Source: Candidatus Nomurabacteria bacterium | GTDB lineage: Bacteria; Patescibacteriota; Minisyncoccia; Phycocordibacterales; UBA9973 | Direction: 5' to 3' | Length of the DNA stretch: 51,756 bases | Assembly: GCA_943359475.1 (NCBI GenBank) | Contig: CALRHK010000003.1 | Coordinates: 1 to 51,756, forward strand | Shown here: positions 27,714 to 30,486 of the stretch, one piece after another | Layout: each line of letters opens with the position of its first letter | Numbering within the stretch: the first letter of the stretch is position 1 | Notes under the pieces: generated by a model | Told to the model about the DNA's origin: nothing | The model's database searches: none | The model's input: only the letters and a program-made list of their open reading frames with translations | Translations under genes and position numbers: made by a program

Positions 27714-27786
27714 GCGCCCGTAGCTCAGTCGGTAGAGCAGTTGCCTCTTAAGCAAACGGTCGGAGGTTCGAATCCTCCCGGGCGCA
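27714..27786 (+). tRNA. tRNA-Lys(CTT)
   Basis: Cloverleaf GCGCCCG..CGGGCGC-A; anticodon loop CT-CTT-AA; GGTTCGAATCC. Confidence 0.95.
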
Positions 27787-27815
27787 CATAGGTATCTGTT
27801 GTGGATACAAGAAAT

Positions 27816-27899
27816 GCCGGGGTGGCGAAATTGGCAGACGCACTTGCCTTAGGAGCAAGCGGAAGTAATTCCATGGAGGTTCAAGTCCTCTCCCCGGCA
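27816..27899 (+). tRNA. tRNA-Leu(TAG)
   Basis: GCCGGGG..CCCCGGC-A; CT-TAG-GA; long variable arm. Confidence 0.95.
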
Positions 27900-28070
27900 C
27901 ACGCACTGTGTGTGCGAGACTTGAAAGGCGGAGCGATGTCGAGCCAGCAGGCGAGACCGCGAGCCGGGGTCGAGAAAGTATACGAGCGTCGGCGAGTATA
28001 CTATTCGTGACCAAGTCCTCTCCCCGGCACACGCACTGTGTGTGCGAGACTTGAAAGGCGGAGCGATGTC
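27882..28070 (+). repeat. 59 bp direct repeat of tRNA-Leu(TAG) 3' end plus flank, period 130 bp
   Basis: 27882-27940 is identical to 28012-28070. Confidence 0.92.
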
Positions 28071-28095
28071 TTTCGTTGTGTTGGTGGAAATGAAT

Positions 28096-28167
28096 GGCCT
28101 AGTCGTCAAGTGGTAAGACAAGAGTCTGCAAAACTCTTATACGGCGGTTCGATTCCGCCCTAGGCCT
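28096..28167 (+). tRNA. tRNA-Cys(GCA)
   Basis: GGCCTAG..CTAGGCC-T; CT-GCA-AA. Confidence 0.95.
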
Positions 28168-28312
28168 CAAAGGAAAAGCTAAGCTTTTTCTTGCGGGATC
28201 GAACGACCGGAGCGGGGCACCCATCGAGTACGATGGGTCGCGAGGTGGGGTAGCGAAATTTTACGAGCGACGGCGAGTAAAATATTCGTGACTCGATTCC
28301 GCCCTAGGCCTC
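28149..28312 (+). repeat. 20 bp direct repeat of tRNA-Cys 3' end, period 144 bp
   Basis: TCGATTCCGCCCTAGGCCTC at 28149-28168 and 28293-28312. Confidence 0.9.
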
Positions 28313-28326
28313 CCACATTTAAATAT

Positions 28327-28414
28327 GCCCGGGTGATGGAATTGGTAGACATAGGGGACTTAAAATCCCCAGGCACAAAATGCCGTGCGGGTTCGATTCC
28401 CGCCCTGGGCACCA
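28327..28414 (+). tRNA. tRNA-Leu(TAA)
   Basis: GCCCGGG..CCTGGGC-A-CCA; CT-TAA-AA; long variable arm. Confidence 0.95.
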
Positions 28415-28617
28415 ATTACTTTTCTAATTTACAGGGAGCAGGCAAACTACTTTGCCTGCGTCGGGAATCGAAAGACTTTTCTATACGAGCGTAGCGAGGC
28501 AGAAAAGTACCTGCTGATGTAGTCAGAGATTCCCGCCCTGGGCACCAATTACTTTTCTAATTTACAGGGAGCAGGCAAACTACTTTGCCTGCGTCGGGAA
28601 TCGAAAGACTTTTCTAT
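28395..28617 (+). repeat. 90 bp direct repeat of tRNA-Leu(TAA) 3' end plus flank, period 133 bp
   Basis: 28395-28484 is identical to 28528-28617. Confidence 0.92.
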
Positions 28618-28652
28618 GTTAGGTATAAAAATAAAACACTCGTTAGAGTGTT

Positions 28653-28979
28653 TTATTTTTGATTAAGGAGTTCCTCAACATGTTGACGATTTTTTTCGCC
28701 GTAATCAATTTGAATATCAAAAAATGGTATTACTCGAGTGCGAAGATGCTTCTTTACATACTCACGCAATTCACCTGCTTTTCTTTTTGCGAAATCAAGT
28801 GCTGCCGCTTCTTTTGTAACTGGAAGTACGGTCATAAATACTGTTGCTCGTTTCATATCGCTTGAGACACTACAGTGGGTGATAGTCATCAGTGATTGCC
28901 CGTTACCTTCACGCTCAAAGAAAGTCGCAGCGTGCCTACGTAATTCTTCGGTAAGTTTTAGTGTGCGGTCTATAGCCAT
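28653..28979 (-). CDS. rbfA: ribosome-binding factor A
   Basis: TIT...VSSD.K.A.VF and LR.R.IP motifs; directly downstream of infB. Confidence 0.9.
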   Translation of the reverse strand: MAIDRTLKLTEELRRHAATFFEREGNGQSLMTITHCSVSSDMKRATVFMTVLPVTKEAAALDFAKRKAGELREYVKKHLRTRVIPFFDIQIDYGEKNRQHVEELLNQK

Positions 28980-28980
28980 A

Positions 28981-30486
28981 TTATTTGGTTACCATAATAA
29001 ACGATTCAATAATGTCCCCAGGTGCGAGTTCTGTTTTTGTTTCAACCATTACTCCACATTCGTTTCCTTCGGCAACTTCTTTAGATTTTATTTTTCCAAT
29101 TTGCAGTTCAATAATTTTCCCTGTACCAATCTCATTTTCGCGACGAATAATTCGCACAGTATTACCAACTGCAACGGTACCAGTGATTACCTTGCCACCA
29201 ACTACCTGTTTTTCCTTTGTTGCGCTAAAATATTTGAGAATTTTCGCTGAGCCGGTAGTTTCTGGTACTTCGTGTCGTGGTCGACGTGTTTCCGCAAGCT
29301 CTTTCATGTAGTCGATAAGTTTATAGATGACATCGAACGTTTGAATATTTACCCCAAGACTTTCATTGATATCCCGTGCACTCGAGTCAATTTTTACGTT
29401 AAATCCAACCACAACACTTTCTTTGTCAGATGATGCAAGCTTAAGATCACCTTCGGATATAGCACCGACGCCTTGCCCGATAATTTTATAGCCAATTGAA
29501 TCGTTCTCAATTTTTGCAATTTCTTTTTTAATTGCCTCGCTTGTGCCCATTACATCAGTTTTGATTATGACGGGGATACGTTTTTTTGCGTCAAAAACGA
29601 CAGGAATATTTTGAAGTACAGCACTGTTGTTTTGCAAGTGTTCAACCGCATACTGCTCAGCTTCTTTTTTTGTGGTAAATGCTACGAACGGGCTTCCGAT
29701 TTGTGGTAGTTTAGAAAAACCAGTAATACGTACGGGTGATGAAAATGTTGCTTCTTTGATTGGGTGTCCCATAAAATCTTCAAGAATACGAGTACTTGCA
29801 ATCGCATCATCTGCAACTACATACATACCACTTTTAAGGATACCGTCTTTAATAAGCAAACTTGCTGATACGCCACGCTTTACATCAAGGTGTGCTTCGA
29901 TTACTGCACCCGTTGCAGGTATCGTTGGGTTACCAGTAAACTCTTTCATTTCTGCAACAAGGAGAATTACATCAAGGAGCTCTGAAATACCAGTGCCTTC
30001 TTTCGCAGATATCGGAACGAAGGGAATATCACCACCATATCCTTCGAGATAGATACCGTTTTCAGTAAGGTCATTTTTTGTTTTTTCAACGTTTGCACCA
30101 GGTCGATCGATTTTATTAATTGCAACAATTGGTGCAATACCACTTGCGGCAATTGTCTTCCATGCCTCGAGTGTCTGTGGCTTAACAGAGTCTTCTGCTG
30201 AGACAACTAAGATGGCAATATCTGCTGCTTGCGCACCACGTTCCCGCATTGCAGAAAATGCTTCATGTCCTGGAGTATCAAGAAAGGTTATACGTTTAAT
30301 TGCACCCTTTTCGTTTGGGTGTGCAATTTCATACGCAGAAAGGTGTTGGGTAATACCACCAGCTTCTTTTGCTACAATGTTACTTTTTCGAATGAAATCG
30401 AGAAGGGTTGATTTACCATGGTCAATGTGTCCCATTACCACCACGACAGGAGAGCGTTCTATTTTATTGTTGGTGGCTGTGTTCAT
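28981..30486 (-). CDS. infB: translation initiation factor IF-2 (no N-terminal extension)
   Basis: MGHIDHGKST, EAGGITQH, DTPGHEAF and NKID motifs. Confidence 0.97.
   Translation of the reverse strand: MNTATNNKIERSPVVVVMGHIDHGKSTLLDFIRKSNIVAKEAGGITQHLSAYEIAHPNEKGAIKRITFLDTPGHEAFSAMRERGAQAADIAILVVSAEDSVKPQTLEAWKTIAASGIAPIVAINKIDRPGANVEKTKNDLTENGIYLEGYGGDIPFVPISAKEGTGISELLDVILLVAEMKEFTGNPTIPATGAVIEAHLDVKRGVSASLLIKDGILKSGMYVVADDAIASTRILEDFMGHPIKEATFSSPVRITGFSKLPQIGSPFVAFTTKKEAEQYAVEHLQNNSAVLQNIPVVFDAKKRIPVIIKTDVMGTSEAIKKEIAKIENDSIGYKIIGQGVGAISEGDLKLASSDKESVVVGFNVKIDSSARDINESLGVNIQTFDVIYKLIDYMKELAETRRPRHEVPETTGSAKILKYFSATKEKQVVGGKVITGTVAVGNTVRIIRRENEIGTGKIIELQIGKIKSKEVAEGNECGVMVETKTELAPGDIIESFIMVTK

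Follow-up and report, generated by a model that had tools for sequence, protein, structure and literature searches.

A class-wide family of structured elements behind tRNA and tmRNA genes in Patescibacteria

Three of the four tRNA genes clustered on a 51,756-nucleotide stretch of DNA from a Candidatus Nomurabacteria bacterium (hereafter, the window) are followed by units of a class-wide element family, which is unannotated in Rfam and whose members directly follow tRNA and tmRNA genes, on the strand of the gene. The element is apparently undescribed, and its combination of a stretch antisense to the host tRNA with a duplicate of part of that tRNA hints at protein-free targeting or control of tRNA genes. 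The reading we prefer, to which we assign a probability of about 0.4, is that of a repeat element without a protein of its own, dependent on its structure and docking at the 3′ ends of tRNAs; its main rival is a cis switch acting on the precursor of the tRNA or tmRNA. The initial annotation of the window had suggested either a mobile element or a trailer RNA switch, and both alternatives survive the tests described here, neither being singled out. A second antisense arm, a hairpin designated P0, a class of units that docks on the tRNA 3′ end, tmRNA as a host and the class-wide spread were not part of that annotation.

Three tRNA genes in the window carry a trailing unit

ARAGORN and Rfam agree on a plus-strand cluster of tRNA genes for Lys, Leu(TAG), Cys and Leu(TAA), which contains the units and the following landmarks:

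27714–27787, plus strand: tRNA-Lys (ARAGORN, Rfam)
27816–27900, plus strand: host tRNA-Leu(TAG) (ARAGORN, Rfam); 27882–27900, from nucleotide 56 to the 3′ end, is repeat copy 1
28096–28168, plus strand: host tRNA-Cys(GCA) (ARAGORN, Rfam); repeat copy 1 is 28149–28168
28327–28414, plus strand: host tRNA-Leu(TAA) (ARAGORN, Rfam); repeat copy 1 begins at 28395
28627–28660, plus strand: perfect 15-bp palindrome between an A-run and a T-run (inverted-repeat search)

Judged from its sequence, the palindrome is likely a bidirectional terminator that closes the cluster; between tRNA and unit no terminator was called. Units of 130, 144 and 133 bp, each ending in a copy of the tRNA from the T-loop on, had been noticed previously, and a repeat search recovers three exact direct repeats with those periods, all of which start in the T-loop: 27882–27940 equals 28012–28070 behind Leu-TAG (59 nt, period 130), 28149–28168 equals 28293–28312 behind Cys (20 nt, period 144) and 28395–28484 equals 28528–28617 behind Leu-TAA (90 nt, period 133). 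At the two Leu loci the repeat also takes in, after the copied tRNA part, a second unit that is truncated (28031–28070 and 28548–28617). The units have two related core types, A (Leu-TAG and Cys) and B (Leu-TAA). The proposed alignment of the Leu-TAG and Cys units holds, the cores being 83% identical over 54 aligned nucleotides with the quoted compensatory stem changes present, and the related hairpin attributed to the Leu-TAA unit is found at 28484–28498, a motif with one occurrence against 0.03 expected.

Chance and assembly artefact were ruled out as sources of these duplications on the strength of the exact repeats, the motif expectation and independent contigs. The initial annotation had named assembly artefact as a possible refutation; the duplications are not artefacts of this kind, because contigs from two studies, neither of which is the best holder, cross two of the junctions, 28011|28012 being bridged by a contig of run X8 (covering 27908–28055) and 28292|28293 by one of run X3 (covering 28255–28372). 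At the third junction, 28527|28528, contigs from runs X1 and X3 extend 30 letters past, the criterion being 31 letters. Relatives of the neighbouring IF-2 gene bear names that fit Patescibacteria.

The units fold as a covarying three-way junction

The element is some 95–190 nt long, and its plus strand, the one that matches the tRNA, folds as a three-way junction of helices P1, P2 and P3. The 5′ strand of P1, which we term the guide, is antisense to nucleotides 54–64 of the tRNA just upstream, and the 3′ strand is a duplicate of that tRNA from nucleotide 56 on (copy 2). In the full form a second arm, antisense to nucleotides 66–73, is set 5′ of the guide at a distance of exactly one P0 hairpin. 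The parts of the window units are as follows:

27903–27915, plus strand: P0 hairpin of the Leu-TAG unit, preceding the guide; a short, diverged version of the P0 in other genomes, placed from the P0 consensus
27916–27925, plus strand: guide (anti-T arm) of the Leu-TAG unit, complementary to the tRNA at 8/11 positions
27927–27965, plus strand: P2 of the type A core, Leu-TAG unit; 3-bp base, 1-nt bulge with tandem G·A, 3-bp stem, 2-nt bulge, capped stem
27969–28011, plus strand: P3 of the type A core, Leu-TAG unit; terminal GTGAC stacks directly on P1; unit junction 28011|28012
28012–28030, plus strand: copy 2 of tRNA-Leu(TAG), nucleotide 56 to 3′ end; 28012–28019 is the P1 3′ strand
28031–28070, plus strand: truncated second unit after Leu-TAG, with P0, guide and first core letters; 100% identity to 27901–27940
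28173–28190, plus strand: P0 hairpin of the Cys unit, read from the sequence
28193–28204, plus strand: guide of the Cys unit, antisense to G53–C64 of tRNA-Cys with one G·T
28206–28292, plus strand: type A core of the Cys unit; P2 28206–28246, P3 28249–28292, junction 28292|28293
28293–28312, plus strand: copy 2 of tRNA-Cys, nucleotide 55 to 3′ end, an exact repeat
28438–28459, plus strand: P0 hairpin of the Leu-TAA unit, near the family consensus
28462–28472, plus strand: guide of the Leu-TAA unit, antisense to the T-loop and 3′ T-stem strand
28476–28526, plus strand: type B core of the Leu-TAA unit; P2′ 28476–28507 (hairpin tipped by tandem G·A), P3′ 28514–28526
28528–28617, plus strand: copy 2 of tRNA-Leu(TAA), nucleotide 57 through CCA (28528–28547), then a truncated second unit; 100% identity to 28395–28484

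The antisense segments described earlier at 27918–27925, 28193–28204 and 28462–28472 are all present. Within the Leu-TAG guide, 27916–27923 form the P1 5′ strand and 27924–27925 (AA) lie opposite T54 and T55 of the real tRNA; the Cys guide is polymorphic at 28194 and 28197 (runs X3 and X8). The type A covariance model (R1) matches the Cys unit at 28192–28311 with 86.4 bits, and model R2 matches the Leu-TAA unit at 28436–28540 with 127.5 bits and gives a weak match at 28569–28680, over the truncated second Leu-TAA unit. RNA fold z-scores of the three window units are −3.5, −4.7 and −4.0 on the plus strand and −1.5, −2.6 and −3.6 on the opposite strand.

The covariation claimed from the window holds in larger alignments. 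Among 122 aligned type A copies, taken from about 320 type A matches in 61 genomes, 94.4% of cells are paired and double changes occur in 35/35 pairs; the 1080 double-change cells compare with 305.9 ± 16.6 in shuffles and 103–175 in slid alignments. The 24 aligned type B copies are 98.5% paired, with 157 double-change cells versus 40.1 ± 5.1. The overall counts are 50 G·U against 16 A·C, and within P2 and P3 they are 29 against 4. While the stems covary, junction letters are at least 90% conserved. The GTGAC at the end of P3 abuts the duplicated nucleotide 56 without any unpaired base between them, and the letters at −1 and +1 of the unit junction are paired and covary. Tandem G·A motifs recur in P2 and in hairpin tips.

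This architecture resembles that of type I hammerheads and retrozyme-like tandem repeats in its three-way junction, open P1, two capped arms and a unit boundary that coincides exactly with the P3/P1 junction. A small ribozyme whose cleavage or ligation site is GAC|C56, the genomic units being retrozyme-like DNA copies of monomers or circles, would suit this topology, given that a one-unit circle would close every helix and that partial tandem multimers of 1.45–1.7 units are present in the genome. However, the letters flanking the junction are base-paired and covarying rather than conserved and unpaired, RF00163 and related hammerhead models as well as all other known ribozyme families give no match at E values up to 10, and a reverse transcriptase is absent from the genome, with no relation between its presence and copy number in relatives. 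The known hammerhead core motifs are missing from the consensus junction strands. We regard such a ribozyme as improbable.

Antisense arms match the tRNA just upstream

A same-strand tRNA lies within 450 nt upstream in 101/128 matches and within 100 nt in 79 of them. tmRNA precedes 7/12 scanned loci, which were mostly matches without an upstream tRNA call, and in distant genomes 14/14 fetched matches follow a tRNA at a distance of 15–68 nt. Docking classes were defined by at least 8/11 guide matches at set offsets; 15/101 units with an upstream tRNA fall in neither class and are excluded from the class counts. Alongside the T-loop class (n = 60) there is a sister class with the same docking on the last tRNA nucleotides and the trailer, its junction lying at approximately 71|72.

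As had been proposed, the antisense segment tracks the host tRNA. Within the T-loop class the guide is complementary at 11/11 positions in 30 units and at 10/11 in a further 19, and the four T-stem letters are perfect in 35/60 cognate pairs compared with 7.6% of non-cognate pairs. The anti-acceptor arm matches at 7/8 positions or better in 20/51 units as against 3.5% for non-cognate tRNAs, and in 17 of these 20 well-matched cases it sits 34 nt before the guide; several units, the window Leu-TAG unit among them, have no such arm. Where stem positions of the tRNA are not Watson–Crick paired, the arms match the complement of the 3′ strand over the 5′ strand (16 vs. 5 in the T-stem and 6 vs. 0 in the acceptor stem). 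Pairing of the arms continues beyond the discriminator into the trailer, and the guide covers T54 and T55, which are dispensable for P1.

Copy 2 is decayed, differing from the tRNA in 28/60 units of the T-loop class. Co-adaptation, part of the original proposal, is seen between guide and real tRNA and not between guide and downstream copy, for which mutual compensation occurs at 3/60 differing positions. From 55 versus 3 positions we had at first concluded that selection makes the guide track the real tRNA and not the copy; this is withdrawn, and the figures are read as a lack of compensation, because the mismatch rates of guide (46/660 positions) and copy 2 (60/540 positions) to the tRNA are similar, as independent decay would give. 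The suggestion that every copy 2 begins a decayed second unit was rejected as a general rule, and tandem duplication is not a general origin, since the trailers behind copy 1 and copy 2 are alike in only 5/50 loci, a comparison that left out units whose trailer is shorter than 20 nt, Leu-TAG among them. The length of the duplicated stretch varies between 8 and 158 nt, and guide and copy 2, which form the inverted ends, are different at each locus, their sequences varying with the host tRNA.

The arms bear directly on the main rival, a cis switch in which they would invade the tRNA 3′ strand of the pre-tRNA or pre-tmRNA and block folding or 3′ processing, unless the junction, perhaps with a ligand, an ion or a protein, locks the guide on the decoy. 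The logic would be that of a 1:2 versus 2:3 attenuator applied to a tRNA, acting in read-through or polycistronic transcripts. A guide that spans T54 and T55 without P1 needing them, a second arm on the acceptor strand and a junction of highly conserved letters between covarying stems are all in keeping with it, as are the constant orientation with the tRNA and the placement of the window units inside a tRNA cluster with no terminator called between. Nearest-neighbour folding of 46 complete precursors gave minimum-energy structures in which the guide binds the real tRNA 39 times and the decoy 4 times. The decoy state is the less stable of the two by 5.7 kcal/mol on average (median 4.6), a difference small enough that binding at the junction might make it up; these energy models leave out tRNA tertiary structure, modification and co-transcriptional folding. 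The element shares with attenuators and T-box leaders a row of three mutually exclusive partners (tRNA strand, antisense arm and decoy), and differs from them in that the regulated object would be the tRNA itself and in behaving as a multi-copy repeat. Functional tRNA 3′ external transcribed spacers (3′ETS) are likewise placed in the tRNA trailer. Taken with the distribution described below, the cis switch is in our judgement possible, with the odds against it.

The arms might alternatively belong to a stable small RNA with tRNA-like ends, in which anti-acceptor arm, P0, guide and copy 2 mimic an acceptor/T-stem minihelix and the junction replaces the T-loop; RNase P and RNase Z would excise it, and its function would lie in trans, perhaps in protein binding. 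In full-form units the arms do take the places that tRNA positions 1–7 and 49–53 would have, with P0 replacing 8–48, the recurrent tandem G·A motifs would be in accord, and RNA-library contigs cover the P2 part of a related unit, which is no proof of transcription, depth and uncovered parts of such contigs being taken as evidence neither for nor against expression. This proposal is unlikely, as the acceptor part of copy 2 is decayed in many units, the anti-acceptor arm is missing from several, a tRNA mimic would not need pairing past the discriminator, and the arms complement the 3′ strand instead of reproducing the 5′ strand.

Units are numerous, unevenly distributed and mosaic

The initial annotation spoke of a family of structured elements, and the type A covariance model does match across order, class and phylum samples. 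In this genome R1 matches 7 places and R2 adds 2 full units, so that 9/38 tRNAs bear a unit. The type A model is positive in 53/61 genomes of the order, with 1–19 matches each, in 61/151 genomes of the class sample and in 8/151 of the phylum sample; within the one order the matches per genome range from 0 to 19 for type A and from 0 to 12 for type B. Tandem and truncated units are present, and the cores of this genome are mosaic, one having a broken P3. For 38/122 cores the nearest neighbour is in the same genome (4.7 ± 2.4 expected), and for only 2/122 does it occupy the same tRNA of a different genome. Even near-identical cores have arms, P0 and trailer specific to their locus, and a simple model in which the same element moved fails for this reason.

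The search for empty sites gave a mixed outcome. Genome G003, of the same family, and one RNA-library contig (run X17) have no unit at the orthologous sites, and their spacers are too diverged to give base-exact ends of the insert; for G001, of the same genus, no empty-site comparison is available because its contigs break at the unit-bearing tRNAs. Neither a fresh insertion nor an excised or circular form was seen.

These patterns weigh against the cis switch. Genomes from different genera of a single family have anything between zero and more than 20 copies, with only 2 units in the closed genome G007, tandem, truncated and broken copies are common, and there is no orthology by tRNA between genomes. 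Many units, moreover, are preceded by a strong terminator hairpin and would therefore be missing from most transcripts.

Known families and mobility enzymes do not account for the element

Against Rfam 15, only tRNAs reach the gathering score in the window; at E values up to 10 over 27780–28660 all non-tRNA matches score at most 18.3 bits, compared with gathering scores of 39–66, and at 12 related loci only tmRNA and tRNA match. A search for a co-occurring recombinase, HUH or reverse transcriptase gene had been suggested; no such gene goes with the element, as none of the mobility domains searched (RVT_1, Phage_integrase, Y1_Tnp, TnpB zinc-ribbon and IS110 DEDD) tracks it. RVT_1, PF01797 (Y1/HUH transposase) and PF01548 (IS110 DEDD) are absent from this genome. 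RVT_1 is present in 26/61 relatives without relation to copy number, occurring in 4/8 motif-free genomes and missing from the high-copy genomes G021, G024 and G041, and TnpB exceeds the cut-off in 1/61. A Xer-like tyrosine recombinase, about one per genome, is found in 57/61 relatives including 8/8 without the motif. The statement that the window contains no integrase proved correct: the only PF00589 match in the genome is on another contig (C1).

Several candidates were rejected on these grounds: a miniature element derived from IS200/IS605 or a REP/RAYT system (no Y1 transposase in the genome, end sequences not constant), an IS110-type bridge-RNA system (no DEDD recombinase in the genome), a retroelement such as a group II intron, retron or retrozyme (RVT_1 absent here and not tracking copy number in relatives) and a MITE (ends different at every locus, duplicated stretch of no fixed length). 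A phage or viral origin was likewise rejected. The Leu-TAG unit had no blastn match among 50,697 phage records, and the 25 IMG/VR contigs that matched a 17-base core pattern are chance matches, since the covariance model finds the motif in none of them.

The hallmark of integrative elements, the tRNA 3′ segment directly repeated at either side, is present, whereas no cognate integrase was found within or beside the element. Like tRNA- and tmRNA-integrating islands and prophages, the units have a flanking direct repeat of the tRNA 3′ part from the T-loop or near the 3′ end, leave the tRNA intact and form tandem arrays; unlike them, they measure 95–190 nt rather than kilobases, have no integrase inside or co-varying, and possess a conserved single-strand fold with arms antisense to the target. 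Scars of integrase-mediated islands or prophages, the interior deleted and attL and attR left close together, would account for direct repeats at these positions in both tRNA and tmRNA genes. The T-loop and the region near the 3′ end are reportedly the classical integration sublocations in such genes, a view said to go back to Williams in 2002. Scars would not be expected to have a covarying fold common to a whole class or arms antisense to each local tRNA, and up to 19 of them would have to occur in a genome of 0.6–0.9 Mb with a single recombinase; we consider this explanation very improbable indeed. The tRNA fragments described in one report flank elements of 9–23 kb (PMC9897764).

In the portions of the full-text literature covered, 2026 preprints included, no such element was found described; supplementary files, outside this search, could hold unnamed motifs.

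A possible route to new units

A protein-less docking repeat would persist through docking on tRNA 3′ ends, with new or extra units born by recombination or polymerase template-switching where the fold sets the element's own 3′ end by tRNA nucleotide 56. The tRNA would be left whole and the displaced 3′ copy would stay, like the attL/attR of integrative elements. We propose that the fold is conserved because it builds that nucleotide-56 junction, while cores would be shuffled between loci by gene conversion. The RNA arms could pair with the real tRNA or the decoy copy and read-through transcripts may therefore toggle between the two, which is the least certain step of the proposal. Long-term covariation and class-wide presence would also fit a host function.

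A bolder version has the element as a self-guided, protein-free inserter. Its folded strand, equipped with programmable antisense arms, would settle on the 3′ portion of any tRNA or tmRNA, as gene or as transcript, set its own 3′ end against nucleotide 56 and insert itself, by RNA catalysis or a forced template switch of the host polymerase at the three-way junction, with the tRNA regenerated. If true this would be a minimal guided mobile element without a gene of its own; we hold it to be speculative and on balance rather unlikely. Among the analogies are group I introns (IGS, P1/P10) and group II introns (EBS/IBS), in which an internal segment likewise pairs across the insertion point (here 2 nt on one side and at least 9 on the other) and the element's own 3′ end is held beside the first downstream nucleotide. 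In contrast to these introns, the element has no catalytic core matched by Rfam, measures about 100 nt and has no linked reverse transcriptase, and the tRNA needs no splicing because copy 1 completes it. As in IS110 bridge RNA, TnpB/IscB omega RNA, integron attC and CTX/Xer systems, a structured strand recognises its target by pairing and aligns the element end, yet the enzymes of the IS110 and TnpB guides are lacking here and rare among the relatives, respectively, and in contrast to CTX/Xer the target is not dif-like, the only recombinase in this genome being Xer-like. A further comparison is with the E. coli tyrT-linked repeats, units behind a tRNA gene that each end in a copy of the tRNA 3′ terminal segment, for which we know of no antisense arm, covarying junction or family spread over many tRNAs.

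If the units are mobile, they would represent a guided element that encodes no protein, with a bearing on minimal mobile elements and programmable targeting of tRNA genes. If they are a switch, they would form a cis device in which an invading antisense strand and a decoy together gate tRNA maturation; we are aware of no example of such a layer of regulation. On either reading the 122 and 24 aligned copies offer a large, well-covarying RNA structure for biochemistry. In some genomes of 0.6–0.9 Mb, type A or B elements stand behind a large share of the tRNA genes, and it is because of these elements that assemblies break at tRNA genes and show partial tRNA copies there.

A tRNA- and tmRNA-linked element in the window

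The units behind tRNA genes in the window belong to a class-wide, covarying, strand-specific three-way-junction element, which is antisense-tied to the 3' ends of tRNAs and tmRNAs and has a duplicate of the 3' part of the tRNA behind it. Each unit comprises a hairpin (P0), a guide that forms the antisense 5' strand of stem P1, a core with junction arms P2 and P3 (type A in the Leu-TAG and Cys units, type B in the Leu-TAA unit) and the downstream duplicate or decoy, here termed copy 2. Four tRNA genes form a head-to-tail cluster, and a repeat search of the window found exact direct repeats behind three of them, each from the T-loop onward:

27714-27787, + strand, tRNA-Lys
27816-27900, + strand, tRNA-Leu(TAG)
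+ strand, exact direct repeat behind tRNA-Leu(TAG), 59 nt, period 130
28096-28168, + strand, tRNA-Cys
+ strand, exact direct repeat behind tRNA-Cys, 20 nt, period 144
28327-28414, + strand, tRNA-Leu(TAA)
+ strand, exact direct repeat behind tRNA-Leu(TAA), 90 nt, period 133

The extension of the repeat after both Leu-TAG and Leu-TAA is a truncated second unit, and the Leu-TAG and Cys cores share 83% identity across 54 nt. All three segments that the initial annotation had described as antisense to their host T-arms were recovered, at 27918-27925, 28193-28204 and 28462-28472. An assembly artefact is excluded as the source of this structure, since contigs from sequencing runs of other studies span two junctions (28011/28012 in run X8 and 28292/28293 in run X3); at the third, contigs extend just 30 letters past. 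In the X3 and X8 contigs the Cys-unit guide has T and A at 28194 and 28197 in place of C and G, one variant improving T-loop pairing and the other dropping to a wobble. Convergent with the cluster is an IF-2 gene (28981-30486, - strand, 501 aa), whose closest database protein is 94% identical; sources name the relatives of this protein as Paceibacterota, Parcubacteria or Patescibacteria.

Distribution of units

The source genome (647,947 bases, 30 contigs) contains 38 tRNA genes; a script found the tRNA 3' end repeated downstream of nine, of which the Gln case is of another nature. R1, a covariance model made from four type A units, has seven matches, one of them behind tRNA-Glu(TTC) where a contig ends, and the type B model (R2, of Leu-TAA and Gly-TCC type) matches two full units plus the truncated one, so that 9/38 tRNAs carry a unit. 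The cores are mosaic: the Met unit combines a Leu-TAG-type P2 with a Cys-type P3, and the Gly-CCC unit is a chimera within P3 that breaks the stem, its tRNA copy carrying a one-base deletion. At the exceptional tRNA-Gln(CTG) locus (C2:25956-26320), a 13-nt copy of the 3' acceptor strand lies 278 nt later, with an intervening small ORF that has a KOW-type look by eye only; as this locus lacks the three-way-junction motif, it may represent another kind of insertion or chance.

In the order of the source genome, R1 matches 53 of 61 genomes (1-19 matches each); it also matches 61 of 151 class-sampled genomes and 8 of 151 phylum-sampled genomes, the last figure including the source genome and one other of its order. 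R2 matches 39 of the 61 order genomes, its weaker matches overlapping type A units because both types share P0 and the guide. No family in Rfam 15 matches the units, even at E values up to 10.

Fold and covariation

On the + strand, the fold of a single unit is a three-way junction (z -3.5 to -4.7), and the opposite strand folds more weakly. Across 122 type A copies, in an alignment that was fitted to the model and is therefore biased towards structure, standard pairs occupy 94.4% of cells, changes on both sides occur at 35/35 pairs, and double-change cells number 1080 against 305.9 ± 16.6 after shuffling and 103-175 with partners slid. The 24 type B copies pair in 98.5% of cells, and 157 cells show double changes against 40.1 ± 5.1. 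Several junction letters are constant in at least 90% of copies, whereas the stems vary; P3 ends 3' in GTGAC, of which covarying variants exist, and no unpaired base lies between it and P1. G.U exceeds A.C (50 versus 16 overall, 29 versus 4 within P2 and P3), the pattern expected if the tRNA-matching strand folds. It is unlikely that the units are processed into a small RNA whose ends resemble those of a tRNA.

Antisense arms and their hosts

Among 128 matches with flanks, a tRNA on the same strand lies no more than 450 nt upstream in 101, and no more than 100 nt upstream in 79 of these. All 14 matches retrieved from distant genomes lie 15-68 nt behind a tRNA, and 20 of 24 type B copies likewise follow one. 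At 12 further-scanned loci, mostly matches without an upstream tRNA call, a tmRNA gene precedes seven. In seven genomes (loci L030, L036, L038, L050, L085, L103 and L012) the unit lies directly behind the tmRNA gene, and its arms are antisense to both the T-arm and the acceptor strand of the tmRNA.

Units fall into a T-loop class (n = 60) and a 3'-end class (n = 26), with fifteen in neither. In the former, the 5' strand of P1 and the next two letters form an 11-letter complement of the upstream tRNA's T54-C64 (11/11 matched in 30 units, 10/11 in 19), and copy 2 starts from nucleotide 56, in a few cases 55 or 57. In the latter, the guide pairs with the last tRNA letters and the trailer; here copy 2 begins some two letters ahead of the discriminator. 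tRNA genes without an encoded CCA typically have CA or CAA immediately after the discriminator (many loci, for example L018, L022, L037 and L060), and it is exactly this stretch with which 3'-end-class guides pair.

The proposal that the antisense segment tracks its host tRNA holds: four T-stem letters are perfectly matched in 35/60 cognate but 7.6% of non-cognate pairs. A second arm is complementary to nucleotides 66-73 at 7/8 or better in 20/51 units against 3.5% of non-cognate tRNAs, and in 17 of these 20 lies 34 nt 5' of the guide, exactly one P0 hairpin. These full forms contain one long near-perfect palindrome that runs from the acceptor strand through an A-tract, a GC hairpin and a T-tract to the anti-acceptor arm. 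Where tRNA stem positions are not Watson-Crick paired, the arms complement the 3' strand (16 versus 5 in the T-stem, 6 versus 0 in the acceptor) and are therefore antisense, not copies of the tRNA 5' half.

At L031 (two matches), L105 and L035, guides fit an upstream RNA whose 3' end resembles a T-arm and acceptor but for which ARAGORN and Rfam gave no call; candidates are a tRNA that is unusual or bears an intron, or a small RNA of another kind. At L068 (genome G022), a 3'-end-class unit lies 33 nt behind an ARAGORN tRNA call with anticodon TTA; such a tRNA would read the stop codon UAA, making it a candidate suppressor or a miscall.

Copy 2 and competing pairings

In 28/60 units copy 2 is not identical to the tRNA. 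Of the 60 positions that differ, 3 still form Watson-Crick pairs with the guide, 22 form G.U and 35 no longer pair; by our tally, the guide diverges from the tRNA at a rate similar to that of copy 2, almost without compensation, and copy 2 is frequently decayed past P1. The scant compensation and this decay make copy 2 look like a by-product, kept only over the length that P1 requires. In nearest-neighbour minimum-energy folds of 46 whole precursors (tRNA through copy 2), a model that omits tRNA tertiary structure, modification and folding order, the guide is predicted on the real tRNA in 39 and on the decoy in 4, the decoy state being on average 5.7 kcal/mol (median 4.6) less stable. A cis switch, in which the arms would invade the tRNA except when the junction holds them to the decoy, is possible though doubtful; the predicted folds show only that the two pairings compete.

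Behaviour as a repeat

We tentatively favour, at a probability of roughly 0.4, a protein-less repeat element, a reading compatible with the cis switch. As the fold would set the element's own 3' end against tRNA nucleotide 56, recombination or polymerase template switching there could add a unit and leave the tRNA whole. Our guess is that arms are fitted to a new tRNA by templated correction of imperfect palindromes during replication.

Copy number per genome within the order ranges over 0-19 for type A and 0-12 for type B, a closed genome having just 2 type A matches. Some units are truncated and some stand two or three in tandem, and unit repeats appear to break short-read assemblies of the group. 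Units are absent from the corresponding places in two relatives: in G003, a genome of the same family, Cys and Leu(TAA) lie 38 nt apart with no units, and an RNA-library contig joins 28171 to 28320, indicating a relative without the Cys unit. In the same-genus genome G001, contigs end inside the orthologous tRNA-Lys (C50:3-57) and tRNA-Cys (C29:1-28).

The nearest core lies within the same genome for 38/122 copies (4.7 ± 2.4 expected) and at the same tRNA species for 9/122 (2.8 ± 1.8 expected), only two of the nine in a different genome. Mean core identity is 0.57 within genomes, barely above the 0.53 between them. These figures point to several diverged lineages per genome, common to genomes, with local gene conversion mixing cores.

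Known systems and mobility enzymes

The element resembles integrase-borne islands in its tRNA 3'-part repeat, its T-loop and 3'-end sublocations and its use of tmRNA. Such sublocations were reportedly described by Williams in 2002 for integration at tRNA and tmRNA genes. The element's small size, lack of an integrase, fold and antisense arms set it apart, and it is very improbable that the units are scars of classical islands. In one account, fragments flank elements of 9-23 kb (PMC9897764). Like intron guide sequences, the guide pairs across the insertion point, and the topology resembles that of a type I hammerhead; no defining feature of introns or hammerheads was found, and a small ribozyme active at the junction is quite unlikely. 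We would rank a repeat element first, then a cis switch, a small RNA, a ribozyme and island scars. The portions of full-text literature and recent preprints covered by our search hold no description of such an element, whose function is putative.

Of the recombinase, HUH and RT genes that the initial annotation proposed to look for, none tracks the element in the genomes searched. A search of the source genome detected no RVT_1, Y1_Tnp or IS110 DEDD domains; its one tyrosine recombinase lies on a different contig. No copy of the element turned up in searches of phage records and viral contigs. Tyrosine recombinases occur at about one per genome in 57/61 relatives, including all eight motif-free ones, RVT_1 occurs in 26/61 with no relation to unit copy number, and a TnpB domain exceeds the cut-off in 1/61. 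Several relatives (G025, G041, G054 and G057) have their only Xer-like recombinase gene at a distance of 3-8 kb from a unit, which may reflect conserved synteny with tRNA genes, or chance.
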